From Caldilineales bacterium (GTDB lineage Bacteria; Chloroflexota; Anaerolineae; J102): DNA of 64,000 nt. The translations under genes were made by a program, and so were the position numbers. Under the pieces are notes generated by a model. It was not told the DNA's origin and did not search any database. It was given only the letters and a program-made list of their open reading frames with translations. Of this stretch, positions 3,304 through 54,651 are shown piece by piece. The DNA lies in the NCBI GenBank assembly GCA_019695115.1, contig JAIBAP010000007.1:48793-112792 (forward strand), written 5' to 3'. Within the stretch, counting starts at the first letter, position 1. Every line of letters begins with the position of its first letter.

Positions 3304-4070
3304 CACATCGGCGCCGCAATGGTGATGGTGGGGTCGTATTCGATGGTCTGAACCGTCGTGGATTGGACGCCCCCGGCCTCGCCCACCACTTCCTGCTTCA
3401 CGGGCACCCCGCGCCTGGCGCTGACCCACAGCTTGACCGCGCTGACGACCTGGCTGCCCGACCCCAGGTCGGTGGTCGAGGTGTAGGTGTAGACGTTGGT
3501 CGGCTCACCGTCCACCGTATCCGTCCCGGCCGTCCCGGCCTTGCTGATCGTGCCGATGAGTTGATCGACCGCAAGCGCCGGAAAGGCCGATTGCAGCATC
3601 TCCTTGCCCGATACCGGCAACACCGACCAGGCGCCGTCGCGCTTGCTCCAGACGGCGTCGCCGATGACGATGGTCTCGCTCTCGAAGCTGGCGGTCGTCA
3701 TCATGGTGTGCAGCTTGTCCGGCGGGATCATCTCGCCCACCAGGTTGATCGTGTCGCTGCCGGCGACGATGGTGGTCTTGGTGCGATAGGGGCCGGCCTG
3801 GAGCAGGGCCTGGAGGGCGGCGACAATGGCATCCTGCGGGCTGCCAACCGGCGCCGGAACCGCGGTCGGCGCGGGGGTCGCTGTCGCTGCGGGGGCAGCG
3901 GTGGGAGCAACGGTCGGCGCGGGGGCCGTGGTGGCGGCGGGGGCGGATGTGGCTGCCGGCGCGGCGGGGGCGGTGGTCGCCGCCGGCGCAGAGGTGGGCG
4001 CGGCGGGGCTGCCGCCACATGCGGCCAGCAACAGGGTCAGGACGAACAGAGCGACGAGCAGAGGTTTCAT
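3303..4070 (-). CDS. Secreted lipoprotein with Ala/Pro/Thr-rich linker, unknown function
   Basis: MKPLLVALFVLTLLLAAC lipoprotein signal at 4070, confirmed by cat at 4068-4070. An (APATSAPAATT)n linker is followed by a ~170-aa globular domain. The gene is translationally coupled to the downstream lyase-like gene. Confidence 0.5.
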   Translation of the reverse strand: MKPLLVALFVLTLLLAACGGSPAAPTSAPAATTAPAAPAATSAPAATTAPAPTVAPTAAPAATATPAPTAVPAPVGSPQDAIVAALQALLQAGPYRTKTTIVAGSDTINLVGEMIPPDKLHTMMTTASFESETIVIGDAVWSKRDGAWSVLPVSGKEMLQSAFPALAVDQLIGTISKAGTAGTDTVDGEPTNVYTYTSTTDLGSGSQVVSAVKLWVSARRGVPVKQEVVGEAGGVQSTTVQTIEYDPTITIAAPM

Positions 4071-5235: not shown

Positions 5236-5310
5236 CGAAGGACGAAGGACAAATGACGATGGACGAAGCGGATCGGCTGGAGGGAGGATCCACTGCCATC
5301 CGTCATCCGC
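5236..5310. repeat. Repeated ~70-bp element, copy A (core GACGAAGGACnAAnGACGATGGACGAAG...CTGGnGGnAGGA)
   Basis: Shares a ~55-nt conserved core with 26899..26982. It sits in the 100-nt gap between the ABC ATPase and permease genes. Confidence 0.7.
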
Positions 5311-9573: not shown

Positions 9574-9619
9574 GTGCGACGCACGGCAACCTGCGGTTGC
9601 TTGGAGGTGCATCGCACCT
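9572..9619. repeat. MITE/REP-like palindromic element, copy 2
   Basis: aggtgcgacgcac...(21 nt)...aggtgcatcgcacct. It overlaps the HNH gene stop codon. Confidence 0.75.
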
Positions 9620-9630
9620 TTCTTTACGAG

Positions 9631-12354
9631 TTAGCGCTGCATCAGGGGCAGGTACAGGGGTGCGACCGGGCCGGCAATGCCGCCGGGGATGGTGAGCGTG
9701 GTCAGGCCGCCGCCTTCTTGCTGGCGCTGGGGAGCGCTGGCCGCCACGATGAAGCTGGCGGTAACGGCGGGGTTGTCGCCAGCCTGGATGTCGTACACGC
9801 CGTCATCCGCCGCCGACGTGTCGAGGAAGATCAGGAATTCACCGGTGGTAGCGTACTTGGGAATCGTGCCCAGGGCAACGCCGTTCACCGTCAGCTCTTT
9901 GGCCGGCCAGCCGGCGCCGCTGAGGGTGAGGATGCTGCCGCGCGCGCCGATGGTGTAGTTCAGCGACAATTGCGGTGGCAAGGGGCCAGCGCTCACATCC
10001 ATCGGGAGGGGGGTCTGCCGCATCGCGAACTGGCCCAGCGCGCCATACATGTTCCAGCCCCAGCACTTGGGCCGCCCGTTGCCGACCAGGGTGCAGGTAT
10101 GACTCCCCCCTGCCGCCACGGCCGTGACGCCGCTGCTCATGCCCATCACATCGTGGGGCGTCGAACTGTTGGCGACCGTGCCGTCGCCTAGCTCACCATA
10201 CCCATTGTAACCCCAGCACTTCACCCCGCCGCCAACCAGGGCGCAGGTGTGCCCACCATTTGCCGCCAACGCCGTAACCCCACTGGTCAAGCCAACGACA
10301 TCCACCGGTTTATCACGGCTCATGGTCGTGCCGTCGCCCAGTTCCCCAAGCAAGTTCCTTCCCCAGCATTTGACGCCGCCCGCACTGGTGAGGGCGCAAC
10401 TGTGATCGCCGCCCAGCGCCAGCGCCACGACGCCGCTCAAACCGATGACGTCCACCGGCGCTCTGCGATCCGTGGTCGTGCCATCGCCCGCCTGACCAAA
10501 ATAGTTGTTTCCCCAACACTTCACCCCACCGCCCGTCGTAAGGGCGCAGGTGTGCAGGCTTCCGCCCGCCACCGCCGCCACCCCGCTGGATAGACCCACC
10601 ACGTCCACCGGCTTGCGCCGCAACGGCGCCGTCGAGTCTTCGCCCAACTGCCCGTGCGTGTTCCTTCCCCAGCATTTGAGGCCACCACCGTCAGTGACGG
10701 CGCAGGAGTGGTTTCCGCCGGCCCCCACCGACTTCACGCCGCTGGTCAGTCCGAAGACATCGCCCGGCGTCAGGCTGGCGTCTATCTTGCCGTTGCCCAG
10801 TTCGCCGGTTCCGTTTTGGCCCCAACACTTGACCCCGCCAGCGTCGGTGACGGCGCAATTGTGAGCTCCGCCGGCGGCCAGGACTTTGACGCCGCTCAAC
10901 CTGGCCGCACAGCCGGCCGCGCCACCGGCGCACACATCCACCGGCATGGCAGAGTCGAGAGTCGTGCCATTGCCCAACGCGCCGCTCAAGTTCCATCCCC
11001 AGCACTTCACCCCGCCGCCATCGGTAAGAGCGCACGTATGCGAAGAGCCCCCCGCCAGCGCTGCCAGCCCACCCGTGAGGCCCATTACATCCACGGGCGC
11101 CGCCCGAACCTTGAACCAATCGACGCCCAGTTGGCCCCAGTAGTTTGCCCCCCAGCACTTGACCCCGCCGCTTCGCGTGAGGGCGCAGGCGTGCACCTGC
11201 CCCACTCCCAGCGCCACCGCATCGTTGCCCAGGCCCAACACATCCACGGGCGTTGAGTGGTTGGTGGCCGTGCCATCGCCCAATTGCCCGTAGGTGTTCA
11301 GCCCCCAGCATTTGACCCAGCCTTCGGTGGTGAGCGCGCAGATATGGCCGGGTTCATCGTTGAAGGCATCGCCGGTGGCGACCGCCGCCACGCCACTGCT
11401 CAGACCGATCACATCGACCGGCGTTTGGCTATCCGTGGTGGTGCCGTTGCCCAACTGCCCGAACTTGTTGAATCCCCAGCATTTCACGCCACCGCCCGTG
11501 GTCAGGACGCAAGTGTTGCGGCCGCCAGCGCTAACAGCAGCGATGCCGCTGCTCAGCCCGCTCACGTCCACCGGAGTGGTGCGGTCGGTGGTGGTGCCAT
11601 CGCCCAAGGCACCGTTCTCATTCCAGCCCCAGCACTTGACGGCGCCAGCGTTGGTGACGGCGCAACTATGCTTGTAGCCAGTCGACACGGCAATGACGCC
11701 GCTGCCCAAACCAGCGACGGCAGTGGGCTTGGTTCGCGTCACGTTGGTGCCATCGCCCACCTGGCCTTTCTCATTCGAGCCCCAGCAATAGGCGCCACCA
11801 TTGATCACGGCGCAAGCGTGGTACCCTCCTGCCGCCACCGCCGTAGCAGGCCCAGGCATATTGACCACACTTCTCGGCTTGTAAACTGTCTCCGAGGGCG
11901 GAACGCCGATGCCCAGTTGGCCAGAGTCGTTGTAGCCCCAGCACTTCAGGCTACCATCACCGAGAAGGGCACAGGAATGACCGCCACCGGCTACCACCGC
12001 CGTGATGGTATCGGAAGCAAGATCGGCCACGTCCTGAGGAACGTAGCGGTCTATGCCCATCCCGCCAGCACCATCGCCCACCTGCCCCACCCAGTCGTTG
12101 CCCCAGCACTTCACGGCGCCGCTGGTGGTGAGCACGCAGTTGTGGCCGGACCCCACCGAGAGCTTGGCAACGTTCAGCAGGGGCGGGACGGAGACGGTGT
12201 TCAGCCCGGATAGGGGAGTCTGGTCAGGTTCTTGGAGAGCGTTTTCGGGAACATCGGTCGATTGAGCGCTGGCGACCGGCGAGACGCACAGGCTCAGCGC
12301 CATCGCCAACGCCAACAACAAAGAAATGGCGGAAATACGTTGCGTTTTCATGGC
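9631..12354 (-). CDS. Secreted RCC1-repeat (regulator of chromosome condensation-like) beta-propeller protein
   Basis: Signal peptide MKTQRISAISLLLALAMALSLCVSPVASA, with the start at 12354. At least 14 tandem ~50-aa repeats follow the pattern GxxH(S/T)CALTxxGxVKCWGxNxxGQLGDGT, followed by a ~110-aa C-terminal domain. Confidence 0.85.
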   Translation of the reverse strand, partial: AMKTQRISAISLLLALAMALSLCVSPVASAQSTDVPENALQEPDQTPLSGLNTVSVPPLLNVAKLSVGSGHNCVLTTSGAVKCWGNDWVGQVGDGAGGMGIDRYVPQDVADLASDTITAVVAGGGHSCALLGDGSLKCWGYNDSGQLGIGVPPSETVYKPRSVVNMPGPATAVAAGGYHACAVINGGAYCWGSNEKGQVGDGTNVTRTKPTAVAGLGSGVIAVSTGYKHSCAVTNAGAVKCWGWNENGALGDGTTTDRTTPVDVSGLSSGIAAVSAGGRNTCVLTTGGGVKCWGFNKFGQLGNGTTTDSQTPVDVIGLSSGVAAVATGDAFNDEPGHICALTTEGWVKCWGLNTYGQLGDGTATNHSTPVDVLGLGNDAVALGVGQVHACALTRSGGVKCWGANYWGQLGVDWFKVRAAPVDVMGLTGGLAALAGGSSHTCALTDGGGVKCWGWNLSGALGNGTTLDSAMPVDVCAGGAAGCAARLSGVKVLAAGGAHNCAVTDAGGVKCWGQNGTGELGNGKIDASLTPGDVFGLTSGVKSVGAGGNHSCAVTDGGGLKCWGRNTHGQLGEDSTAPLRRKPVDVVGLSSGVAAVAGGSLHTCALTTGGGVKCWGNNYFGQAGDGTTTDRRAPVDVIGLSGVVALALGGDHSCALTSAGGVKCWGRNLLGELGDGTTMSRDKPVDVVGLTSGVTALAANGGHTCALVGGGVKCWGYNGYGELGDGTVANSSTPHDVMGMSSGVTAVAAGGSHTCTLVGNGRPKCWGWNMYGALGQFAMRQTPLPMDVSAGPLPPQLSLNYTIGARGSILTLSGAGWPAKELTVNGVALGTIPKYATTGEFLIFLDTSAADDGVYDIQAGDNPAVTASFIVAASAPQRQQEGGGLTTLTIPGGIAGPVAPLYLPLMQR

Positions 12355-26708: not shown

Positions 26709-26898
26709 CAGCGTAGTCCTTCATTCACGATTAACAGAAAGTGACAACGCTCACATTTTATCAAAGCACCTGTGCGTACCCAAATCGAAGGCGCGGTCTC
26801 ACAAGGGGTTACAGCCGATGATCACCAACCCCTTCTCATGTGCACGTCCGACCCCGTGCAGCCTAAACTGAAATCACGTCGAGAACAGTAGTTTTGTC

Positions 26899-26982
26899 AC
26901 GGACGAAGGACGAAAGACGATGGACGAAGAAGGCCGTCTGGGTGGAGGAATCGCCTTTGTCCTCAGTCCTTCGTCTTTCGTC
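26899..26982. repeat. Repeated ~70-bp element, copy B
   Basis: ggacgaaggacgaaagacgatggacgaagaaggccgtctgggtggaggaatcgcc...tcgtctttcgtc. Internal 12-bp inverted repeat gacgaaagacga/tcgtctttcgtc. It lies between the GH3 stop and the SARP-SBP5 regulator start. Confidence 0.7.
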
Positions 26983-27022
26983 AAATCAGAAACGGAACTT
27001 ATGTTTTCAAAGTGACTTAGGT

Positions 27023-29668
27023 TTAATCAATCGAAACCGGACAAACGAAGGCGCGTTCCTCGATGGCAGTCTGGCCGAGACCGGTGACCGCGAACACGCC
27101 CTTGCAGCGAATATCCTGCGAAGACGAGCCAACCATCGCTTTGAATGAACCTGATTCGACGACCAGCTTCATGCCGGCGTTGTAAAAGGCAAGTTGCGTG
27201 ACCGGCAGGTGAAAGGTCACGCGGCGGCTCTCGCCGGGGGATAGGCTAAGGCGGGCGAAGCCTTTTAGTTCTTTGATCGGCCGCGCGACGCTGGTGGATT
27301 CGCCCTGCACATACAGTTGCACGACCTCATCACCTGCCACTCCGCCCGTGTTTGTGACCATGACGGAAATGGCAAGCGTATCGTTGGCGGCGACTTCGTT
27401 TGCGGACAAAGTGAACTCGCTGTAAACAAAGCTCGAATAGCTCAGGCCGTGACCAAATGGATAAAGCGGCGCCTCGGTCATGTAGCGGTAGGTGCGGCGA
27501 TCCATGCTGTAGTCTTCGAACGGCGGCAATTGATCGACTGACTTGTAGAACGTGATCGGCAGCCGCCCGCCGGGGTTGTAATCGCCGAAGAGGACATCGG
27601 CAATGGCCGACCCTCCTTCTTCTCCCGGATACCATGCCTCCAGGATTGAGGGCACATGGGCGTCTGCCCAGTTGACGGCCAGGGCGCCGCCACCCAACAG
27701 CGCCAAGACCACCGGTTTGCCCAGGGACTGAATCTGTCGCAACAAGGCTTCTTGCGTGCTCGGCAGGGCGATGTCGGTGCGGTCGCCGCCCGCAAAGCCT
27801 TCGACGTTCACCGGCATCTCTTCGCCTTCTAGCGCCGGCGAAAGCCCCATCACCATGACTGCGACTTCGGCTTTCTCTGCTGACTGCACGGCTTCGACGG
27901 CGAGTTCCTGGCCCGGAATTGCCCACAGCAATTGCACCTGCGGATCACGGCCCTGATTGGCGTAATCGAGGCGGACATCGTACAGCCGGCCGGCCTCCAA
28001 ATCGAGTGCAACCGTGCGTGTAAAGGCATGATGTTCGTTGTCGGCAAAGGGCAGGATCTCGCGGCCATCCAACCAGAGGCCATAAGCGCTCGACCCACGC
28101 ACCCCCAGTTGGTAACGTCCTGAGACGGGCGGGATGAGCACGCCAGTCCAACAGACACGGAACGGCTGTGTGGCGCCTCCACCCAGCGGCGAGTCCAGAC
28201 GCCACATGAAATCGATGGCAGGGTCGACGCGCGTGAAGACGGCAGCGGCCCCGACGCCGGAGACGGCAAAATAGTCGCCGCGTAGCCCGGTCTGCCCTGC
28301 GCCGCCGGCCAACGCTCGCAGACAGGCAGATGGCACAACCTGAAGCGCCGGCGCCTCAGCCGCGTGATGGCAGCCCTGAGCGTAATACACCACTGTCTTC
28401 GGCGATACCTTGCGGCGAATGCCCTCCAGCGGCGTGACCGCGCTCGACGGCGTGCCGTTGTAGTTGCCCAAGAGCACGGCCAGATCGTCGGCGTTCGGCC
28501 CAATGACGGCGATGGACTTGATATCCTTTGCCAGCGGCAGCAACGGGCGCTGCGGATCGGTCGCGGGAAAAGGTTCGTTCTTGAGCAGGACGATCGATTT
28601 CCTTGCCGTCTGCAAGGCCAGGGCGCGGTGTGCGGGCGAATCATTGAGTTCGTAGGGGATGCTGGCAAAGCGAACCTGTGCTGGTGGATCGAACATGCCC
28701 AGACGGAATCGGGCCGTGAAAAGCCGCCTCACAGCCTGATCGATGGCTGCTTCGTCGATCAAGCCCTGCTCGACCGCTTCGATCAAGGACACGAAAACGC
28801 ATCCACATTCCAGGTCGCAGCCGGCCTTCACCGCCAGAGCCGCCGCCTCGGCTGGCGTTTCGACCAGCTTGTGGCCACCGAAAATGTCGTCGATGGCCCA
28901 GCAATCGGAAACCACGTGGCCATCGAAACCCCATTCCTCGCGCAAGATCTTCCCGATCAAGGTGGGACTGGCGCAACATGGCTCACCATTCACCCGGTTA
29001 TAGGCCCCCATCACCGAGACAGCCCCGCCTACCTTCACGCACGCCTCGAACGCAGGCAGGTAGGTCTCGCGCAGGTCGTGCTCGCTGACGCGTACATCGA
29101 AGTGATGGCGGATGGCTTCTGGTCCGCTGTGGGCGGCGAAGTGCTTTGGGGTCGCTGCCAGCTTGAGATAGGCCGGATCGTCGCCTTGCAAACCCTTGAT
29201 GAAAGTGATGCCCATAAGCCCGGTCAGGTAGGGATCCTCGCCGTAGGTCTCTTGGCCGCGACCCCAACGCGGGTCGCGAAAGATGTTGATGTTGGGCGAC
29301 CACAAAGTGAGGCCGGTGTAGATGTCGCGCACGCCGCGGCGCACGAACTCGTGGTGCTTGGCCCTGGCCTCATCCGAAATGGCCGTGGCAACCTCTGCCA
29401 TGAGGTCGACGTCCCACGTCGCCGCCAGGCCGATAGCCTGTGGAAACACCGTTGCCACGCCAGCGCGGGCGACGCCGTGCAAGCATTCGTTCCACCAATG
29501 GTAGGCGGGGATGCCCAGGCGCTCGAGAGCAGCGGCGCTGGAAACCATTTGTGAGACCTTCTCTTCCAGCGTCATCCTGGCGATGAGATCATCTACGCGC
29601 TCGGCAATCGGTCGAGAGACATCGAAATAGAGTGGATTGAGGGTGGTCGGCGAGCCGGTGGGGGGCAT
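27023..29668 (-). CDS. Glycoside hydrolase family 3 (beta-glucosidase/beta-xylosidase) with PA14 insertion
   Basis: N-terminal GH3 motifs (LEEKVSQMV, KHFAAHSGPE, GFDGHVVSDCWAIDD), a PA14-like insert (GDYFAVSG...) and a C-terminal GH3 domain. There is no signal peptide. Confidence 0.9.
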   Translation of the reverse strand: MPPTGSPTTLNPLYFDVSRPIAERVDDLIARMTLEEKVSQMVSSAAALERLGIPAYHWWNECLHGVARAGVATVFPQAIGLAATWDVDLMAEVATAISDEARAKHHEFVRRGVRDIYTGLTLWSPNINIFRDPRWGRGQETYGEDPYLTGLMGITFIKGLQGDDPAYLKLAATPKHFAAHSGPEAIRHHFDVRVSEHDLRETYLPAFEACVKVGGAVSVMGAYNRVNGEPCCASPTLIGKILREEWGFDGHVVSDCWAIDDIFGGHKLVETPAEAAALAVKAGCDLECGCVFVSLIEAVEQGLIDEAAIDQAVRRLFTARFRLGMFDPPAQVRFASIPYELNDSPAHRALALQTARKSIVLLKNEPFPATDPQRPLLPLAKDIKSIAVIGPNADDLAVLLGNYNGTPSSAVTPLEGIRRKVSPKTVVYYAQGCHHAAEAPALQVVPSACLRALAGGAGQTGLRGDYFAVSGVGAAAVFTRVDPAIDFMWRLDSPLGGGATQPFRVCWTGVLIPPVSGRYQLGVRGSSAYGLWLDGREILPFADNEHHAFTRTVALDLEAGRLYDVRLDYANQGRDPQVQLLWAIPGQELAVEAVQSAEKAEVAVMVMGLSPALEGEEMPVNVEGFAGGDRTDIALPSTQEALLRQIQSLGKPVVLALLGGGALAVNWADAHVPSILEAWYPGEEGGSAIADVLFGDYNPGGRLPITFYKSVDQLPPFEDYSMDRRTYRYMTEAPLYPFGHGLSYSSFVYSEFTLSANEVAANDTLAISVMVTNTGGVAGDEVVQLYVQGESTSVARPIKELKGFARLSLSPGESRRVTFHLPVTQLAFYNAGMKLVVESGSFKAMVGSSSQDIRCKGVFAVTGLGQTAIEERAFVCPVSID

Positions 29669-35680: not shown

Positions 35681-37144
35681 CTACCTTCTCTGACCCGGTC
35701 TGCCGCGACCACGGCTGCGACGCCGCCCGCCATCGCTGTGATTCGAGGCCGCAGCCGGGGCTGCAGCGGCCATCGCCGGCGGTTGCGCCACCGGCGCGTG
35801 CAGCAATTGCTGGTAATAGTCGTCCAGCAGCATGGCCATGATGGCCGATTCTTCTTCGTTTTCGGCCAGACTGCGGGCCAGGGGGATGAAGCGCAGGCTG
35901 CGCTCGGCCTGGAGTTTGTCGCGGTCGCGCAAGCGCGCTTCCAGATGGGCGATCAGGCGTTCGGTCACCACCGCTTCGACATCGGCATCGGTGGGAAGGG
36001 GGCGCTCGATCAGGTCGATCTCGTAGCGGCGGGCGATGCGGTCGAGGGCGTTTTTTTCCAGGATGCTGATCAGCGAGATGGCCACGCCTGCCGCCCCGGC
36101 CCGGCCGGTGCGCCCGGCGCGGTGGATGTAGGCTTCGATGTCTTCCGGCGCCTCGTACTGGATGACGTGCGACAGTTCGGGAATGTCCAGCCCGCGGGCG
36201 GCGACATCGGTGGCCACCAGGAAGCGCAGGCTGCCCTGGCGGACGCGGTCGAGCACGCGCTCGCGGTCTTTCTGGGCCAGGTCGGCGCTCAGTTCGTCGG
36301 CGTCGTAGCCGAATCGCTGCAAGACGACGGTGACATAGTGGACATGCTGGCGGGTGTTGCAGAAGATGATGGCCGAGGCGGGATTTTCGACTTCGATGAT
36401 GCGCACCAGGCTGCGGTCTTTGTCCATGGCCGGGGCCAGGTAGTAGACGTGCTCGGTGTCAGTGACATGGACATGGTCGTGGCTGAGCGAGAGGAAGTCG
36501 GGCGCGGTCATGAATTCGGCCGCCGTGCGCATGACGTAGGAGGGGAAGGTGGCCGAGAACATGCAGGTGTGGACGCGGCGGTTGGGCAGGTTGCGCCGGA
36601 CGCGCACCATGTCGGGGTAGAAGCCCATCGACAACATGCGGTCGGCCTCGTCCAGGACCAGGGTGCGCAGGTGTTCGAGTGTGAGTGAACGGCGCAAGAG
36701 GTGGTCGAGGACGCGACCGGGGGTGCCGACGACGATGTGAGCGCCCTGCTGCAGCGCCTGCGTTTGCGGGCCGTAGCCGACGCCGCCGTAGACGGCGACG
36801 GTGCTAAACCCGGCCGGTGCGCACAATGTCTCGGCCTCGCGCCAGACCTGGTAGGCCAGCTCGCGGGTGGGGGTCAGGATCAGCGCCTGGCAGACAGGGC
36901 GGCTGGGGTCCAGCCGCTCGATCAGGGGCAGCAGGTAGGCGCCGGTCTTGCCGCTGCCGGTGCGGGCCTGGATCATCATGTCACGGCCGGCCAGCAGATA
37001 GGGGATGGCCCTGGCCTGAACGGGCATGAGATCAGTCCAGCCGGCGCGGGCGCAGGCGGCGCTCATGGCCGGGGTCAGGTCACCAAAGGCCAGGTCGGGC
37101 AGTGGGTTGTGGGGTTCGGTGGGGATTGGGCTGGGATCGGTCAT
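35681..37144 (-). CDS. DEAD-box ATP-dependent RNA helicase
   Basis: Q-motif, Walker A TGSGKT, DEAD (VLDEADRM), SAT, HRAGRTGRAG and an RG-rich C-terminal tail. Confidence 0.9.
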   Translation of the reverse strand: MTDPSPIPTEPHNPLPDLAFGDLTPAMSAACARAGWTDLMPVQARAIPYLLAGRDMMIQARTGSGKTGAYLLPLIERLDPSRPVCQALILTPTRELAYQVWREAETLCAPAGFSTVAVYGGVGYGPQTQALQQGAHIVVGTPGRVLDHLLRRSLTLEHLRTLVLDEADRMLSMGFYPDMVRVRRNLPNRRVHTCMFSATFPSYVMRTAAEFMTAPDFLSLSHDHVHVTDTEHVYYLAPAMDKDRSLVRIIEVENPASAIIFCNTRQHVHYVTVVLQRFGYDADELSADLAQKDRERVLDRVRQGSLRFLVATDVAARGLDIPELSHVIQYEAPEDIEAYIHRAGRTGRAGAAGVAISLISILEKNALDRIARRYEIDLIERPLPTDADVEAVVTERLIAHLEARLRDRDKLQAERSLRFIPLARSLAENEEESAIMAMLLDDYYQQLLHAPVAQPPAMAAAAPAAASNHSDGGRRRSRGRGRPGQRR

Positions 37145-37162: not shown

Positions 37163-38250
37163 TCACCAGGTCACGTGCCGCACCCGGCCGGGCGGGCTGA
37201 GCGGGATCAGGCGGCCGTCTTCCTCCTGCCGGACGACGTTCACCCACCAGATCAGTTCGGGTGGGCGCTCGCCAGGGGACGGGCGCAGGGCGGGGTCGAG
37301 GCGGGCGCTGCTGTTGCGGGTGAGGATGGTTTCGATGGGTGGGAGGGTGGGGTCGGCATAGGCCAGGTGCACCGCGTACCAGGCGCCTTCGGGCAGCAGG
37401 TCGACTGTCACCCAACGCAGGGTAAGCGCTTGGTCGCCGACGATGATGCTGTGGTCGGGGGGGCTGATCGGGGCCGGGGCCGGATAGACGGGTGTTGGCA
37501 AGGGGGCGGCGCCCTCGGCGTCTTCTCTGGCCAGGCCGACGGGGATGGCGAGGATGGTGCCGGGGATGAGGTCGTTGGCGTCGCCGATGTCGTTGTTGGC
37601 GATGATGTCGCCGATGGCGACGCCGAGCGTCTCGGCGATGCCGGTGAGGGTGTCGCCGGGCTTGACCTGGTAGTTGACGGCGCCCATGACCGGCGTGGGG
37701 GTGGTCGGGCCATTAGCCGGGCCATTAGCCGGGCCGGCGGTTTCAGGCAGGGATGCCGCCGGGGGTGGGATCACCAGCACCATGTTGGGCAGCAACGGTG
37801 GGGGCGTGGTCCAGTTGTTGGCGGCCAGGAGCTGGTCGAGGGTGATGCCGAAGTTGCCGGCGATGCCGAGTAGCGTGTCGCCGCTCACGACGGTGTAGGC
37901 GATGGGGGCCGGGGTGGGGGTGGGGCTGGGGGTGGGGGTGGGGGTGGGGACGGGGGTGAGGGTGGAGGTGGGGGTGGGGGTGAGGGTGGGGGTGGGGGTG
38001 GGGCTGGGCGTCAGGGCCAGGACGCGCTCGGCTGTATCCCACCGCCACCAAAGGGCCAACACGGCCAGGATGCCCAAGACGAGGGCGATGTCGGCAAAGG
38101 GTGGTCGCCAGCGACGACGGGCGGGCGTGACCAGGTCGTAGCCGCACATGAAGCAGTCGGCGGCGCTGTGGCTGACGCGCGCCCCGCAGTTGGGGCAGAT
38201 GCGGGCGGAAGGGGGATGGGAGGACACGGGGGGGAATGCGGAGTGCGGAT
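37163..38250 (-). CDS. Zinc-ribbon/TM/PT-linker/double LysM domain protein
   Basis: N-terminal CPNCG...CFMCGY zinc ribbon, one TM (IALVLGILAVLALWW), a (TPTP)n linker and two LysM motifs (YTVVSGDTLLGIAGNFGITLDQL; YQVKPGDTLTGIAETLGVAIGDII). The start is uncertain (GTG/ATG between 38250 and 38341) because the 5' end runs into heptamer repeats. Confidence 0.65.
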
Positions 38251-38309
38251 TGCGGATTTGGAAATGTGTGTTGCGTGTTTCGTGTTCCGTGGTGCGTGGT
38301 GCGTGAAAA
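38234..38309. repeat. Degenerate heptamer repeats (GANTGCG)x4 and (GTGNNNC)x6
   Basis: gaatgcg gagtgcg gattgcg gatttgg ... gtgttgc gtgtttc gtgttcc gtggtgc gtggtgc gtgaaaa, lying in the 5' region of the LysM gene. Confidence 0.8.
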
Positions 38310-38329
38310 CCGCCGATGTTTTCTCGCAT

Positions 38330-38497
38330 TTCACGCTTCACGTTTCACGCTTCACGTTTCACGTTTCACGCTTCACGTTTCACGCTTCACGCTTCACGTT
38401 TCACGCTTCACGTTTCACGCTTCACGCTTCACGTTTCACGTTTCACGTTTCACGCTTCACGCTTCACGTTTCACGCTTCACGTTTCACGCTTCACGT
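38330..38497. repeat. Heptanucleotide tandem repeat (TTCACGY)x24
   Basis: Perfect 7-bp periodicity with C/T alternation at position 7. Intergenic, between the stop of the GT-C-like gene (38530) and the 5' region of the LysM gene. Confidence 0.95.
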
Positions 38498-38529
38498 ATT
38501 ACGGCCTTCCTGACAAATCAACTCAACAA

Positions 38530-40263
38530 TCAATAAGAGATACGTAATAGGAAATAAGCGATGTAGTCGGAGAAAAGTAGCGTGATCAGCAATAGGAGCG
38601 AAAATAGCGAGATCAGGGCGGCGGCGGTGCGCAGGGGCGTGTTGCCAAAACGGATGCTCACGTCGTGTTCGCCGGCGGGCAGGTCGAGGGTGATGAGGGC
38701 GTCGGGGCCGGCGCTGCGCAGGGCGATCTCTTCGCCGTTGGCCGTCCCCTGCCAGCCAGGATACCAGTAGGTGTAGAACTGGAGGGTGACGGGGGTGCGG
38801 GCGAGGACGCGCACGCGCTCGGAGCCGCCGCCGTGGCGGGTGGGCGTGACTTCGCCCTCGCCGGCGATGATACCCGCAAGGGGCAGGGTTCCGCCAGTCA
38901 GGTAGGCGTCCAGTTTGGGGCTGGCGATGGGCGGTTGGCCGGCAAAGGCGGTGGAGCCGCGCATGTCGGGGAAGGCGACCTCGAAATCGGTGACGGCGGC
39001 GGGGCTTTGGTTGCGGGCGCTGACGGGGGTGTGTTCGGGCCGGAGGGTGGGGTAGGAGGCGAGGACGATGGCCAGGCCGATGGCCAGGGCAGGGGTCGGG
39101 AGCGGGGCGGCTGGGGTCTTGGCGGCCGGCCGCCGGGGGAGGAGGGCGGCCAGGACGGCGGCCGCCGTCAGGGCCAGGAAGAGGTCCGCCATCGCCAGTA
39201 AGCGGAAGGGGAACTGGATAAGGGCGAGGGGCGGGAGGGCGGCCCAGATCGGCTGCGTGACGGCCAACATGCCAAGGATGGCGATGAGGGCGGCGGCCAG
39301 GAAGCCGGCCAGAAGGCCGCGATGGGCGAGGCGGGCCCGCCACAGCAGGAGCAGGGCTGCCAGGCCGAGAATGAACAGCCAAAGCCCGATCTGTTGGCTC
39401 ATACCGTCGTCGGGGCCGGGGAGGGCGTGGCCGAAGCCCCAATCGAGGCTGAGAAGCTGGAAGAGGTAGGGGTACTGTTTGGCGTAGTTGTAGGCGTCGG
39501 GCAGCCACTGCGCCTGGACGATGTAGGGGCTTTCGGCCAGGGCCGGGAGCAGGAAGATGGTGGCCATCCCGCCCGCCAGCAGCCCCGCCAGCAGGACGGC
39601 GAAACTCCGCTGCCAGGGGAAGCGCCCGGTCTGCCGCCGGTGCAGCAGCAGCCAGTAGAGGATCAGGCCGATGAGGAAGGGCGGGAAGATGAGCAGGGTG
39701 ACGCTGTGCGTGAGCAGGGTGAGGCCCAGGCTGAGGCCGGCCAGGGCCAGCCGGCGCCGCCCGCCCCGTTCGATCAGATCCCAGAAGCAATACAGCACCC
39801 AGGGGAAGAGGGCGAAGGCGACGAATTCGGCCAACGCCGCCCGCACGTAGATGTTGACCAGGTGGTACGGGGCGAAGGCGTAGAGCAGCCCGGCCACGAA
39901 GCCAGCGCCCGCTCCCCACAGCCGGCTGGCGAAGCGGTACATGGTGAGGCCAGAAAGGAGGAAGGCCAGACCCCAGGTGAGTTTGACGGCCGCAACGATG
40001 CTCGCGCCCAGGAGGTGAAAGGCTTCGGCGATGTAGAAGGCCAGCGGCGCATAGAAGGTGAAGAGCGGGTAGCCGTAGCCGAGCACGTGGTCGGTCGCCC
40101 AGCGCGGCCAGAAGAAGCCGTCACGGATGCCCTGGTCGAATTCGACCAGCCAGAACAGGCTGTGGGCGGCGTCGTGGGCGCGCAGGAAGTAGCCGGGCGC
40201 CATCAGCGGCGCGCAGCCGATCAAGGTAAGGAAGAGCAGGAGGACGAGAGGGGAGCGGCGCAA
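38530..40263 (-). CDS. Polytopic GT-C-like membrane protein (PTPS-related/YfhO-like family), putative glycosyltransferase
   Basis: ~577 aa with ~11 TM segments in the N-terminal two thirds (FWPRWATDHVLGYGYPLFTFYAPLAFYIAEAF) and a C-terminal extracytoplasmic domain. It is a paralog of the next gene. The start is a TTG at 40263, immediately abutting a heptamer array. Confidence 0.5.
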   Translation of the reverse strand: MRRSPLVLLLFLTLIGCAPLMAPGYFLRAHDAAHSLFWLVEFDQGIRDGFFWPRWATDHVLGYGYPLFTFYAPLAFYIAEAFHLLGASIVAAVKLTWGLAFLLSGLTMYRFASRLWGAGAGFVAGLLYAFAPYHLVNIYVRAALAEFVAFALFPWVLYCFWDLIERGGRRRLALAGLSLGLTLLTHSVTLLIFPPFLIGLILYWLLLHRRQTGRFPWQRSFAVLLAGLLAGGMATIFLLPALAESPYIVQAQWLPDAYNYAKQYPYLFQLLSLDWGFGHALPGPDDGMSQQIGLWLFILGLAALLLLWRARLAHRGLLAGFLAAALIAILGMLAVTQPIWAALPPLALIQFPFRLLAMADLFLALTAAAVLAALLPRRPAAKTPAAPLPTPALAIGLAIVLASYPTLRPEHTPVSARNQSPAAVTDFEVAFPDMRGSTAFAGQPPIASPKLDAYLTGGTLPLAGIIAGEGEVTPTRHGGGSERVRVLARTPVTLQFYTYWYPGWQGTANGEEIALRSAGPDALITLDLPAGEHDVSIRFGNTPLRTAAALISLFSLLLLITLLFSDYIAYFLLRISY

Positions 40264-40271
40264 AGGGAGGG

Positions 40272-40474
40272 GGTGGCAGGTGGCAGGTGGCGGGTGGCAG
40301 GTGGCAGGTGGCAGGTGGCAGGTGGCAGGTGGCGGGTGGCGGGTGGCAGGTGGCAGGTGGCGGGTGGCAGGTGGCGGGTGGCGGGTGGCAGGTGGCAGGT
40401 GGCAGGTGGCGGGTGGCAGGTGGCGGGTGGCAGGTGGCGGGTGGCAGGTGGCAGGTGGCAGGTGGTGGGTGGCA
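40272..40474. repeat. Heptanucleotide tandem repeat (GGTGGCR)x29
   Basis: 203 bp of ggtggca/ggtggcg units immediately (8 nt) upstream of the TTG start of the GT-C-like membrane protein gene at 40263, on the minus strand. Confidence 0.95.
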
Positions 40475-40532
40475 GAGCTTGTCCCTTCGCTCCGTTCAGG
40501 GCAGGCTCTGAGTGAAACGAAGGATGGCAGGT

Positions 40533-40579
40533 GGCTCGTTGGTTGTTGACTGTTGATTGTTGACTGTTGATTGTTGAGT
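40533..40579. repeat. Heptanucleotide tandem repeat (TGTTGAN)x~7
   Basis: ttgttgac tgttgat tgttgac tgttgat tgttgag tgttgac tgtt. The unit ACTGTTG is the reverse complement of cyanobacterial STRR3 (CAACAGT). It lies just 3' of the stop of gene 40596..42353. Confidence 0.9.
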
Positions 40580-40595
40580 GTTGACTGTTTTCCCC

Positions 40596-42353
40596 TTATC
40601 TTCTTCTTTGCCAGAGGAGCAGGGCGATGAGCAGGATGAGGGAGACAAGCGAGAGGATGTCGCTGGCGCGGCGGATGGGTGTGTCTTCAAAGCTGAGACG
40701 GAGGAGATGGTCGCCAGCGGGGACGGGGACAGATAGCAGGCCGTAAGGTGGGCGGGTGTGGGCTGGGGTGAGGGCGAAACGGTCGAGGACGGTGTTCGTG
40801 GCGGGATCGAGGAGGGTGGCCGTCCAGCCGGGGTACCACTGGCGCAGGAAGGGCACCCGCTCGCCCTCGCTTCCGGCATGAACCCAGAGGGTTTCGCTGG
40901 TCACGCTGTGTTCGAGGCTGTTCACGGCCAGGGTTTCGTCCTGGGGCGCCAGGCTATAATCGACCTGGCTTGTGACCGGCGTCCCGGCCATGTGCAGGTC
41001 GGCAATGGGCGACCAGGCCGGGATTTCCTGGGCGGTGATGGTCATGCCGGTCATTTCGTCGGCGCTGCGCTGGAATTCCATCAGCCCGGCCAGGGTGGCG
41101 CCGCCGGGCGGGGGCGGCGCCACCTCGACCTTCAGATAAGCGGCGCTGCCCAGGATGATCAGGCCGGCCAGCAGCAGCGGCGGCAACCAGCCTTCGTTTT
41201 CCTCGCCCAACACGGTGGGGGCCAGGACGGCCAGGGCCAGGGCGGCCAGGGTGAGGTAGCGCCAGGGGAACTGGGCCGATGACACCAGCGGCAGGTGGTC
41301 CCAGGCCCAGGTCGAAACGGCGGTGGTCAGCCAGAGGCTGGCGAGCAACACCGCCAGCCAGAAGCCGATTTCCAGCCGCGAGCGGGCGTCGCGGCGCAGC
41401 CAACGCCACCCGGCCAGCGCAGCCAGGGCGAAGGGAACCAGGCCGAGCTGGTAGCTGAGGGGGTCGTTGGGGCCAGGTTCACTGATGCCGAAACCCCAGC
41501 GCGGGTCGAAAAGTTGGGCGAAGTAGACGAAATGGTCGTGGAAGTCGTAATAGCCCTTGAACCACTGGTCGAGGTTGACGAAACGGGCTTCGAGCAGGGC
41601 CGGGAGGACGAAGAAGGCGGCCAGGGCCAGGCCGAGGCCCATCCCCAGGACTGGAGCGATCAACGCCCGCAGCCCGGTTCGCAGCCGCTTGCCCCGATCC
41701 GGGCTGCGGCGGGCGACGCCGATGACCAGGATGAGGATGTAGCCGGCCAGGACGGGCGTGAAGATGAGGGCGACCAGGTTGGAGCTGAGGTGGACGGCGG
41801 CATAGCCGAGGGCGGCAAGGGCGAGGCTGCGCGGGCAGGGCCGGAGGACGGCGCGGCGGGCGCCCAACAGGGCCAGCGGCAGCAGGGCCAGGGCCAGGCT
41901 TTCGGCCATGGCTGCGCGCACATAGATGTCGACCAGATGGTAGGGCGCATAGACAAAGGCCACGGCCGCCACCAGCGCCGCCCGCTCGCCCCGCCAATCG
42001 CGCACGAAGAACCACATACACCAGGCGCCCACCAGGATGGTGGCGATGAAGGTGGCTTCGACCGCGCCCTCAAGGCTGAGCGGCAACAGGCGATAGAGCA
42101 GCGTCCCCAGAAAGGTGGCGGCGGGGGCGTAGATGTTGAAGAAGGGGTAGCCGTAGCCAAAGGCCCAGTCGGGCGACCAGCGCGGGAAGATCGTGCCTTC
42201 GTTCCAGGTCAGGTTGTATTGCAGGATGAAGTAAACATCGTGCCGGGCGTCGTGCGCACCCCAGAAGTAGCCCGGCCGCAGCAAGGGCGCGAGGGCGAAG
42301 GCGCACAACAGGGTCGTGGCCCAGAAGGAAGGAGAGCGGAGGAAGCGGGGCAC
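40596..42353 (-). CDS. Polytopic GT-C-like membrane protein, paralog (PTPS-related/YfhO-like family)
   Basis: FPRWSPDWAFGYGYPFFNIYAPAATFLGTLLY aligns with the paralog. By alignment the likely start is a GTG at 42353; the track's ATG at 42485 adds an Arg/Pro-rich extension that is absent from the paralog. Confidence 0.5.
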   Translation of the reverse strand: MPRFLRSPSFWATTLLCAFALAPLLRPGYFWGAHDARHDVYFILQYNLTWNEGTIFPRWSPDWAFGYGYPFFNIYAPAATFLGTLLYRLLPLSLEGAVEATFIATILVGAWCMWFFVRDWRGERAALVAAVAFVYAPYHLVDIYVRAAMAESLALALLPLALLGARRAVLRPCPRSLALAALGYAAVHLSSNLVALIFTPVLAGYILILVIGVARRSPDRGKRLRTGLRALIAPVLGMGLGLALAAFFVLPALLEARFVNLDQWFKGYYDFHDHFVYFAQLFDPRWGFGISEPGPNDPLSYQLGLVPFALAALAGWRWLRRDARSRLEIGFWLAVLLASLWLTTAVSTWAWDHLPLVSSAQFPWRYLTLAALALAVLAPTVLGEENEGWLPPLLLAGLIILGSAAYLKVEVAPPPPGGATLAGLMEFQRSADEMTGMTITAQEIPAWSPIADLHMAGTPVTSQVDYSLAPQDETLAVNSLEHSVTSETLWVHAGSEGERVPFLRQWYPGWTATLLDPATNTVLDRFALTPAHTRPPYGLLSVPVPAGDHLLRLSFEDTPIRRASDILSLVSLILLIALLLWQRRR

Positions 42354-42421: not shown

Positions 42422-43720
42422 TCAGGGCGGGGGTTCTTCGATGTAGATTTCGATCCACGGCGCACAGGTGGGGTTGGCCGTGCACTCGCTGGAATAGAAC
42501 TGATACCAGACGTTCGAGCCTTGCTCGCCGCGGAAGAGGAAGCCGTTGTTCTGGTCGGGATGGGCGTACATGTCCTGGATCTGCGAGCTGATGTCCCAGG
42601 TGTAGCTGCGGACCTGCGGCGTCAGTTGGGCTTCGGCGATGATCTGGTCCGAGCGGTCGACGCCGAGGCTGTCGGCGCCGGGTCTAGCCCAGCGAACTGA
42701 CGCCGTGGCGCTGTTCCAGGTGACGGCGGCCTCGTCCCACGGGCGCAACAGGCGATAGAGCCGCGCCCGCGAGGTGCCGCTGTTGTTGGGGTTGTTGCCA
42801 GCCTCCACCAGGTTCATGTGCAGCTTCGCCGCCAGGGGCTTGACGCCCGGCCCCAGAGACGGCGGGACGATCTTCATGGCCAGGTGCCATTGTTTGTCGC
42901 CGCGGATCGAGGCAACCGGAGAGGAGCCGTTGTTCAGGTCTGGCTCCCAGCCGTTCAGGTTGCCTTCGCTGATACCGTTATAGCCATCCACGCCGGGGCG
43001 AGCGATGATCCAGCGGCGAGAGGGGCCAGCGACGAAACGCATCAGGCCCTGGGCAGGCGTGGGCGCGTTATAGGTCTCGCCCTCCCACACCAGATACTGC
43101 AAACCCAGCCCGACATCGCGATCCTGCACGCCCCAGGTGAAGCCGATCTGGGCGTTGGAGAGGAAATCGGAGCCGAATTGGTCGAGTGGGATCGAGGCTT
43201 CGGTCAGCCAGCCATTGGCGCGGCGGATGGTCTGCGACTCGACGCCCAGGGCCAGCCCGCCGCTGTTGGTCGCCAGTCCGTCCGGGCTGAAGGTGAGGCG
43301 GATGTCGCCCAGGCTGAAGATGCCGCTGTTGTCCACATCGAAGGTGAAGGCGGCCATGTCGTCGAAATGCCAGTTGCGCGCGACGCGCACGACATTGTCG
43401 TCGGTGACATCGAAGGCGATGTAGAGTTTGTCGGAATCCCAGACCAGGCTGGCCCAGGCGCTGAGGTCATTGGGCTGCGGGCGTTCGTCGACCGGCGGAA
43501 AGCTGGCGGTGGTGCGGTCGAGCTGGATTTTTTGGTAGCCGCTCCAATCGCTGAGGTTGCCATCGACGACGGGCGGCGTGCGCTGCCAGACGACATCGAA
43601 GCTCCTGGCGGCGGGGTTGGCAGGGGCGGCGCGGAGGGAGGCGGCGGGGCCGATGAGCAAACCACCGAGGGCGAGCAAGATCGGCAGGAGGGAGCGAAAT
43701 CGCAAGGGAAGAAGGGGCAT
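42422..43720 (-). CDS. Secreted protein with CBM9/DOMON-like carbohydrate-binding domain(s)
   Basis: Signal peptide MPLLPLRFRSLLPILLALGGLLIGPAASLRA, with an ATG at 43718-43720. The VVDGNLSDWSG...LYIAFDVTDD pattern matches the CBM9-like family. Confidence 0.5.
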   Translation of the reverse strand: MPLLPLRFRSLLPILLALGGLLIGPAASLRAAPANPAARSFDVVWQRTPPVVDGNLSDWSGYQKIQLDRTTASFPPVDERPQPNDLSAWASLVWDSDKLYIAFDVTDDNVVRVARNWHFDDMAAFTFDVDNSGIFSLGDIRLTFSPDGLATNSGGLALGVESQTIRRANGWLTEASIPLDQFGSDFLSNAQIGFTWGVQDRDVGLGLQYLVWEGETYNAPTPAQGLMRFVAGPSRRWIIARPGVDGYNGISEGNLNGWEPDLNNGSSPVASIRGDKQWHLAMKIVPPSLGPGVKPLAAKLHMNLVEAGNNPNNSGTSRARLYRLLRPWDEAAVTWNSATASVRWARPGADSLGVDRSDQIIAEAQLTPQVRSYTWDISSQIQDMYAHPDQNNGFLFRGEQGSNVWYQFYSSECTANPTCAPWIEIYIEEPPP

Positions 43721-52395: not shown

Positions 52396-52445
52396 GGGCG
52401 GGGTCCCCCCGCCCCCCGCCCGCCCGCCGCCCGCCGCCCCCGCCC

Positions 52446-52565
52446 AGGGCGAGGGGACCTCGCCCCTACGCGGGGTGCCCCTCCACCCACCTTCGAGGGC
52501 GAGGGGACCTCGCCCCTACGCGGGGTCCTCCCCGCCCCACCAGGGCGAGGGGACCTCGCCCCTAC
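52446..52565. repeat. REP-like array of three tandem hairpin units (AGGGCGAGG-gga-CCTCGCCCT...)
   Basis: Three copies of agggcgaggggacctcgcccctac at 52446, 52496 and 52542, each an 8-bp stem with a 3-nt loop. They follow a GC-rich inverted segment (52396-52440), between yebC and ruvC. Confidence 0.85.
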
Positions 52566-54578: not shown

Positions 54579-54651
54579 GCCACCCTAGCTCAGCCGGTAG
54601 AGCAGCGCACTCGTAATGCGCAGGTCATCGGTTCGAATCCGATGGGTGGCT
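54579..54651 (+). tRNA. tRNA-Thr (anticodon CGT)
   Basis: Cloverleaf: acceptor GCCACCC/GGGTGGC, D-arm GCTC-AGCCGGTA-GAGC, anticodon arm GCGCA-CTCGTAA-TGCGC (anticodon CGT), T-arm ATCGG-TTCGAATC-CGAT, discriminator T. No encoded CCA. TATAAT at 54560-54565 upstream. Confidence 0.85.

Follow-up and report, generated by a model that had tools for sequence, protein, structure and literature searches.

In a metagenome-assembled genome (MAG) of a Caldilineales bacterium we analysed a 64,000-nucleotide stretch, here called the window, in which a gene cluster with two glycosyltransferase-like membrane protein genes carries five arrays of tandem heptanucleotides. The cluster lies on the minus strand, with all genes co-directional, in the order CBM9, GT-C2, GT-C1, LysM and DEAD helicase. 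The arrays, which fall within 38233-40589, were identified by Tandem Repeats Finder (TRF) and direct reading; unit counts and coordinates are those of TRF, given on the plus strand (Table 1). They lie in two spacers: the 302-nt spacer between GT-C1 and LysM (IG1) is filled by arrays A, B and C, and the 332-nt spacer between GT-C2 and GT-C1 (IG2) is filled by arrays E and D. Relatives come from MAGs of Caldilineales and Anaerolineae.

Arrays and genes of the cluster

The five arrays comprise 3.7 to 29 copies of their units with 84-90% matches, the head-to-tail repetition characteristic of simple sequence repeats (SSRs) and long simple sequence repeats (LSSRs). Five period-7 runs occur in the window against none in each of 100 shuffles, and no other period yields comparable arrays, with the exception of one coding hexamer array. 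The 64-kb window contains no second CGTGAAR or CCACCYG array. An earlier note, made from the sequence alone, had listed four arrays; they are real and their units were read essentially correctly, and TRF resolves what the note took for one tract of degenerate heptamers into two arrays, bringing the total to five. It had also placed array E at 40533-40579, which TRF shifts by about 5-10 nt. The end of array D is, as the note had it, exactly 8 nt upstream of the TTG start codon of GT-C1 (40263) by direct reading. Between the end of array A and the LysM GTG downstream of it lie 5 nt (CCCCC), and array E begins 6 nt past the GT-C2 stop codon.

All five arrays are non-coding at this locus. A coding-repeat reading was rejected, as array C has stop codons in 3/3 sense frames and array D has no upstream start codon. 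Given that the LysM gene starts at the conserved GTG at 38227, arrays A, B and C all lie upstream of this gene and none lies inside it. In one relative (L092) these genes abut without a spacer, so that the arrays are placed within intercistronic spacers of a probable operon.

No Shine-Dalgarno motif precedes the GT-C1 TTG or the LysM GTG. On the mRNA strand array D is 62% C and 14% G, and its RNA is predicted to be unstructured, folding worse than 100/100 shuffles (z=+3.9); the predicted fold of array C RNA contains weak ACGU self-pairs only. An inverted-repeat scan found array B to be 71% complementary to part of array C, which makes the two an imperfect inverted array pair. The hairpin predicted between arrays E and D is followed by no U-tract, received no terminator call and is kept with one substitution in a same-species assembly (L122). 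No Rfam family matched in either spacer. Three further readings of the arrays were rejected: iterons or a centromere, because no partition or replication genes lie nearby and the units are tandem 7-bp repeats; heptamer boxes of the Streptomyces antibiotic regulatory protein type, which are spaced 11 nt apart and not contiguous; and a G-quadruplex switch, as there are GG tracts only, on the template strand.

Table 1. Genes, heptanucleotide arrays and intervening sequence of the cluster, with in-frame arrays in related GT-C genes (coordinates of the latter refer to the respective L-numbered locus)
Feature	Coordinates	Strand	Description	Basis
CBM9 / disaggregatase-repeat protein gene	42422..43720	(-)	heads the cluster	Pfam, gene call
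GT-C2 gene	40596..42308	(-)	PTPS_related (PF10131) / PMT_2 GT-C-like membrane protein	Pfam; start from L001 gene call
Array E	40538..40589	(-)	plus strand TGTTGAN x7.4; mRNA strand (NTCAACA); CAACAGT heptamer class	TRF
Unique spacer between arrays E and D	40476..40537	(-)	GC-rich predicted hairpin CCUUCG...CGAAGG	RNA fold
Array D	40272..40475	(-)	plus strand GGTGGCR x29.1; mRNA strand (CCACCYG)	TRF
GT-C1 gene	38530..40263	(-)	PTPS_related / PMT_2 GT-C-fold-like membrane protein; TTG start	Pfam PF10131 (1.3e-19), PF13231
Array C	38330..38496	(-)	plus strand TTCACGY x23.9, 90% matches; mRNA strand (CGTGAAR), purine-rich	TRF
Array B	38268..38305	(-)	plus strand GTGTTGC-type x5.4; mRNA strand CACGCAC/CACGGAA/CACGAAA..., (CACGMAN)	TRF
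Array A	38233..38258	(-)	plus strand GGATTGC x3.7; mRNA strand AATCCGC/ACTCCGC	TRF, sequence
LysM gene	37163..38227	(-)	zinc ribbon, PT linker and 2x LysM; GTG start	Pfam; start conserved in relatives
DEAD-box helicase gene	35681..37144	(-)		Pfam
In-frame arrays, GT-C gene of L071	10598-10741, 11216-11299
In-frame array, GT-C gene of L079	4206-4248
In-frame array, GT-C gene of L050	2302-2690
In-frame array, GT-C gene of L049	8101-8701
In-frame array, GT-C gene of L118	1027-1202

The domain assignments of the genes bear out the note's description of two paralogous GT-C-like genes and a LysM gene: GT-C1 and GT-C2 share 34% identity (E=1e-47). GT-C1 is 100% identical to the NCBI entry MBX7233615.1, annotated as a glycosyltransferase family 39 protein of a Caldilineales bacterium. 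The open frame of GT-C2 reaches upstream to 42485, and the CBM9 gene is present in at least 41 blocks of our collection. Exact-protein look-ups with GT-C1 (577 and 564 aa, L or M first), GT-C2 and P0001 returned no match, and a metagenome scan with GT-C1 as the query recovered relatives only and no contig of the same species; the helicase, the CBM9 protein and P0133 served as anchors in their place. The codons for the Pro/Thr linker of the LysM protein (37903-38008) form a (CCCCCA/CCCACC)n hexamer array of 17.7 units, where most short-read contigs of the species break (L002, L003, L006, L008, L010).

Two other repeat elements were observed elsewhere in the window. At 26862-27030 lies an element of about 170 nt that resembles a miniature inverted-repeat transposable element (MITE). 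Its terminal inverted repeats are CTAAACTGAAATCAC ... GTGACTTAGGTTTAA, and the hairpin at its centre consists of two heptamer arrays in inverted orientation, (GGACGAA)x4 and (CCTTCGT)x4. A related core lies at 5236-5300, and the element had no match in Rfam. A copy 75% identical, with an extra 24-mer x4 array, occurs in the GT-C2/GT-C1 spacer of the sister species (L011, 5250-5500). At 52405-52565, about 2 kb upstream of a tRNA gene (54579-54651), a (CCCCCCG)x5 run is followed by 2.5 copies of a 50-bp unit holding the palindrome GGGGACCTCGCCCC, by virtue of which the 50-bp repeat is like the repetitive extragenic palindromic class.

Unit number within and between species

The earlier note had proposed that unit numbers be compared among raw long reads or independent isolates and metagenome bins, and a comparison of independent assemblies revealed length polymorphism. 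Array D has 29, 10, 8 or 9 units among assemblies of the same species, with flanks 97-99.98% identical, and array C has 24 or 20 units among those in which both flanks are present. The window itself, from the NCBI MAG, holds 29 units of D, 24 of C and 3.7 of A. A JGI assembly (L001, 3300013121) that is 99.98% identical over 21 kb, differing by four single-nucleotide polymorphisms, has an identical 24-unit array C and a 10-unit array D that results from an internal deletion of 19 units. An ENA assembly (L109, ERZ27282906) with 99.7-99.97% identity has 8 units of D and at least 37 of C, beyond which it runs on into another locus. Three more distant assemblies (L122, L123 and L124; ERZ15185866, ERZ15185895 and ERZ28614517) with about 97% identity carry 9 units of D in another C/T pattern. 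In L122 and L123 array C is flanked on both sides and has 20 units in another A/G pattern, and L124 ends inside it; in L122, array A is also one unit shorter (2.7), and single-unit substitutions are found in B and E.

Could the arrays, or the differences in their length, have been made by assemblers? Many short-read contigs end or switch locus inside arrays (L005, L007, L009, L110, L115), and at 203 bp the longest D allele exceeds a typical read. Against an artefact stands the fact that no fewer than six independent assemblies, drawn from JGI, ENA and NCBI, contain the arrays. Moreover, single reads can span the 20-unit C allele (140 bp) as well as the D alleles of 8, 9 and 10 units (56-71 bp), the 56-bp D array of L109 is below the 141-nt k-mers of that assembly, and the allele set with 9 units of D was recovered in identical form from L122, L123 and L124, which are independent of one another. 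Since the short alleles can be spanned and one set recurs in three samples, assembler collapse cannot explain the variation, and we consider an artefact exceedingly improbable. The arrays are hypermutable in length. Because their unit number differs between strains, they are repeats of the unstable kind already known from other bacteria, and we are highly confident in describing them as hypermutable heptanucleotide SSRs.

Two contigs of the species depart from the locus within an array. L109 leaves array C at 9578-10100 for another region, in which CACGGAA/CACGCCC repeats accompany an IG1-like module, and L115 passes at 3880-3960 from the first D unit directly to the start of an NAD-dependent epimerase gene; these jumps are either chimeric assemblies or extra genomic copies of the arrays before other envelope-sugar genes. 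In L005 (1-61) an annotated partial GT-C protein (P0132, NCBI MCW5858788.1) opens with repeats of PPATCHL, which stem from translation of the D array where the contig ends and are thus an annotation artefact of a stop-free array.

Between related species the arrays turn over rapidly. Two loci with 82-84% GT-C1 protein identity (L091 and L094) retain GCCACCY repeats, about 16 units in the former and about 9 in the latter, which directly join a GTG start codon, and have no array B or C. At 89% identity, L011 has neither D, C nor B; its IG2 holds other degenerate heptamers together with the 24-mer array and the MITE-like copy described above, and its IG1 measures 50 nt and includes about 2.5 AATCCGC units of the array A type. 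At 71% identity, L092 has essentially no spacer between the genes. The absence of arrays at 89% and at 71% identity indicates that they are young and labile. As judged from these sequences, the ancestral state was a compact operon-like cluster to which the arrays were added later.

Heptamers across the lineage and their bias to GT-C genes

We surveyed tandem repeats in the window and 80 GTDB loci (1.15 Mb), all centred on GT-C homologues. Among arrays of at least four copies, period 7 is the commonest class in this sample, which is biased to GT-C neighbourhoods, with 64 arrays; periods 6, 8 and 9 account for 31, 13 and 3 arrays, respectively. GT-C genes or their immediate surroundings contain 41 of the 64 heptamer arrays. 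These genes take up 26% of the sequence, a share that rises to about 31% when their flanks are included. At a slightly lower score threshold, in-frame coding heptamer arrays number 23 within GT-C clusters and 4 outside them (binomial p=1.7e-10); of the latter, one (L085, 6477) in fact lies at the 5' end of a GT-C gene. For hexamer arrays the pattern is reversed, with 1 in GT-C clusters and 22 elsewhere. Coding and intergenic arrays were distinguished by an open-flank test, as greedy open reading frames are misleading where stop-free arrays create spurious ones. PTPS_related GT-C genes are thus the preferred site of heptamer arrays. The earlier note had raised the alternative of a genome-wide family like the short tandemly repeated repetitive (STRR) sequences of cyanobacteria. 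Its lineage-wide scope is upheld, in that period 7 is the commonest class and is enriched around the GT-C family; the unit is diverse, and only array E is of the STRR3 class.

Among 119 arrays we counted 83 heptamer classes. Single-linkage clustering of these classes was dropped because it chained everything together. Some classes recur in distant species beyond the expectation of a uniform model, in which composition bias and locus redundancy are only partly controlled. CACGCAT arrays occur in L058, L065, L071 and L107, and array B of the window (CACGCAC/CACGCAA) is a near variant; AACCTCC arrays occur in L050, L071 and L118; ACGTGAA/ACGTCAA arrays in L020, L031, L033, L028 and L118; CAACAGT arrays in L011, L072 and, as array E, in the window; and a TGACCAA array in L051. 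Intergenic inverted pairs of heptamer arrays were seen in L028 (4295-4371) and L049 (4999-5093), for example (ACGTCAA)x4 facing (TTGACGT)x4, and could form long hairpins; such pairs are known from Xanthomonas (PMC4692102).

Within the GT-C proteins of many Anaerolineae, the in-frame arrays fall in two loops, one after about residue 210 and the other about 200 codons before the stop, and translate to 7-residue repeats such as HHASRIT (L071), QLSIVNC (L079) and SNVKREP. They too vary in length. SNVKREP is present in four, three or two copies among 98-99% identical proteins of cluster P0068, and FAEYSQP x2, a 14-residue block, is present in five members of cluster P0015 and absent in one. In the DNA of the SNVKREP repeat, L118 has 15 AACGTSA and 3 AACCTCC units where L119 has 8 and 4, a net difference of 6 units, or 14 residues. 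We considered two truncated homologues (P0204 and P0186) as OFF alleles and rejected them, as their long-read contigs are indel-noisy and the break does not coincide with an array; a second homologue search aimed at OFF alleles did not recover the P0068 species.

Known repeat systems and a possible expression rheostat

The arrays of this locus belong to the known heptameric LSSR/STRR-like class, which is found in cyanobacteria, Xanthomonas, Burkholderia and Beggiatoaceae. What sets the Chloroflexota arrays apart is their occurrence in a different phylum, the diversity of their units and their bias to one gene family; a literature search found no report of heptanucleotide repeats in Chloroflexi. 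The cyanobacterial STRR1, STRR2 and STRR3 units described by Mazel et al. in 1990 are reportedly CCCCAGT, TTGGTCA and CAACAGT. We take the unit class of array E, CAACAGT, to be STRR3 and that of the L051 array, TGACCAA, to be the reverse complement of STRR2, a correspondence that our literature search did not confirm, and these matches may be coincidence. STRRs resemble the present arrays in being heptanucleotide tandem arrays in the non-coding DNA of a filamentous bacterium. Unlike them, STRRs consist of few fixed heptamers in hundreds of copies in heterocystous cyanobacteria, whereas here each array has its own unit, only array E is of the STRR3 class and the host is a member of the Chloroflexota.

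LSSR heptamers were described by Mrazek et al. (2007), and the portions of that work relayed in PMC4679880 and PMC4692102 give GGGAATC for Xanthomonas and GGGGAYT for Nostoc PCC 7120. In both genera heptamer SSRs are over-represented and variable in length, including between pecE and pecF within the pec operon (PMC4692102). The present arrays share with LSSRs the tandem 7-nt unit, a mostly intergenic position, up to tens of copies, intra-operon arrays, inverted pairs and extensive length variation between close relatives. They differ in having many units instead of one dominant G-rich unit, in not being of the G-quadruplex type and in their strong tie to one gene family, including in-frame arrays. 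In marine Beggiatoaceae, and in some cyanobacteria and Bacteroidetes, TAACTGA repeats are located just upstream of start codons devoid of a Shine-Dalgarno sequence, and a post-transcriptional role has been proposed for them (PMC4679880). Like the Caldilineales arrays, they are heptamers a few nucleotides from such starts, with occasional in-frame copies at protein peripheries (PMC4679880). Proximity to the start codon is indeed found for arrays D and A and for the arrays of L091 and L094. The TAACTGA heptamer is, in contrast, a single unit conserved genome-wide and usually present in 2-6 copies, where the units here are diverse and reach 29 copies.

Classical SSR contingency loci in glycan glycosyltransferase genes include Haemophilus lic and lgt, Neisseria lgt and pgl, and the poly-G tracts of Campylobacter. 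They likewise consist of hypermutable non-triplet repeats that lie within envelope glycosyltransferase genes or ahead of them, frequently in sets of paralogues, but their units are of 1-5 nt, their hosts are host-adapted pathogens and their OFF alleles are common, whereas here the units are of 7 nt, the host is a free-living environmental member of the Chloroflexota and no OFF allele was observed. In Haemophilus influenzae the number of 7-bp repeats tunes the expression of hmw1A (PMC8262952). The (ATCTTTC)n promoter arrays of hmw1A/hmw2A are 7-bp SSRs with some 10-30 units; they sit just upstream of a surface-related gene, and their unit number varies between isolates (PMC8262952). By analogy, the graded rheostat of hmw1A, as distinct from a frame switch, is the mechanism that we propose for the Caldilineales arrays. 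The hmw arrays differ in lying between two mapped promoters and in having a measured effect on transcription; the Caldilineales arrays are intercistronic and no promoter was detected.

On balance we think it probable that these are hypermutable LSSR/STRR-like heptamers in the spacers of an envelope gene cluster, whose unit number may act as an expression rheostat. The position of the arrays is that of a phase-variable locus, immediately before GT-C1 and LysM and, in relatives, in frame within GT-C loops. In the mechanism that we envisage, the arrays would lengthen and shorten through slipped-strand mispairing during replication and would be transcribed within a polycistronic mRNA. As arrays D and A abut start codons without a Shine-Dalgarno motif, unit number would set the length of the leader, which would be unstructured and C-rich, before GT-C1 and LysM. 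Leader length would then serve as a heritable and reversible rheostat on downstream expression, possibly through initiation independent of a Shine-Dalgarno sequence, through Rho-dependent polarity (the composition of array D is like that of a Rho utilization site) or through mRNA stability. The outcome would be clonal variation of envelope glycosylation. The earlier note had suggested that expression of these genes may be stochastically switched by repeat number. Unit number is polymorphic at these very genes, as that suggestion would have it, but since the arrays are non-coding at the locus, ON/OFF switching through frame shifts is impossible here, and any effect would be graded. The arrays may, by analogy with the systems described above, tune the output of an envelope enzyme; that they affect expression adaptively is a tentative proposal, which we hold with some doubt.

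Several observations weigh against this explanation as a whole. A sigma-70 consensus scan of 37900-40900 found 0 sites, although the promoters of Chloroflexota may deviate from it, and neither spacer has a predicted intrinsic terminator on the sense strand; with the abutting genes of L092, these results do not bear out the earlier note's description of the spacers as control regions. The 29-unit D allele comes from one assembly only, and some of the unit-number differences come from short-read assemblies, which can collapse long arrays. As all loci of the survey were picked around GT-C genes, its background consists of their flanks and not of whole genomes. It contains 40 non-coding heptamer arrays outside GT-C clusters, in many unrelated intergenic regions, so that intergenic heptamers are also a general trait of these genomes. 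Unit composition varies widely between species, so that no mechanism reliant on C-richness, Rho loading for example, can be general. Every in-frame length change observed is a multiple of three units and keeps the frame, exactly as expected from purifying selection on a neutral mutational hotspot. Finally, a tblastn frame-switch scan of about 100 GT-C homologues found no frameshifted (OFF) allele at any array, although consensus assemblies would hide OFF alleles present in a minority; the single frameshift detected was not at an array and came from a long-read MAG.

The main rival to the rheostat is that the arrays are a neutral by-product of a lineage-specific slippage bias towards 7-nt units and persist only where they do no harm, in spacers and in cytoplasmic loops under no constraint, without any regulatory or adaptive role. 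The spread of arrays over unrelated intergenic regions, their heterogeneous units, the close relatives that keep the same genes without arrays and the frame-preserving coding variants with no OFF alleles all agree with this explanation, as does the polymerase-slippage proposal of Mrazek for the excess of heptamers, in so far as PMC4679880 and PMC4692102 relay it. It does not readily account for the coding arrays: non-triplet arrays in frame are a mutational load and ought to be purged from genes that matter, but one family, which hexamer arrays avoid, is enriched in them about 17-fold per base, and in many species the start codon and the two loops carry independent arrays with different units. 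We give neutral slippage a lesser but real chance of being the whole explanation. A speculative extension of the rheostat is that across Anaerolineae heptamers are selectively maintained in PTPS_related GT-C genes, at start codons, in intercistronic spacers and in frame in two loops, as evolvable switches and rheostats. Neighbouring arrays would then compensate for one another's frame shifts, for which L118 and L119, differing by -7 and +1 units, offer an example. We consider this extension possible, though unlikely.

Two other explanations invoke the repeat units or their surroundings as functional entities. The arrays could be internal parts of a dispersed, possibly mobile intergenic element that inserted into a permissive spacer, as the contig jumps of L109 and L115 and the MITE-like element with its GGACGAA-heptamer hairpin, a copy of which sits in the equivalent L011 spacer, might suggest. 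IG1 and IG2 are not flanked by terminal inverted repeats, however, array D stands alone in L091 and L094, where it joins the start codon, C and D have no second copy in the window, and the jumps may be assembly chimeras through shared repeats, so that a mobile element seems improbable to us. Alternatively, the arrays could be binding platforms, either as DNA for a regulator or centromere protein or as RNA for S1, Csp or CsrA-like proteins, along the lines of MacGregor's proposal for TAACTGA. The recurrence of the classes CACGCAT, ACGTGAA/ACGTCAA and AACCTCC near GT-C genes of distant species and the proximity of arrays to start codons lacking a Shine-Dalgarno motif are compatible with such binding. 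A common binding protein is hard to reconcile with five different units within 2.4 kb, with the number of classes among all arrays, with a 7-bp spacing that turns successive sites to different faces of the helix, with the lack of partition or regulator genes nearby and with the unrelated units that hold the same positions in other species. We regard this explanation as very improbable.

The arrays have practical consequences in that they explain the breaks and wrong joins of short-read assemblies at this locus in these organisms, and some annotated proteins contain translated repeat arrays. Beyond this, the locus bears on the old question of what heptamer STRR/LSSR arrays do. Phase or rheostat variation driven by SSRs is textbook biology of host-adapted pathogens and, to our knowledge, is almost undocumented in free-living environmental phyla. 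A Chloroflexota lineage with abundant, strain-variable heptamers focused on one envelope glycosyltransferase-like family offers a testable contingency-type case outside pathogens. If heptamers are indeed selectively maintained in these genes, they would constitute a contingency-locus system in free-living filamentous environmental bacteria, which might, for example, evade phage or grazers through variation of their envelope glycans.

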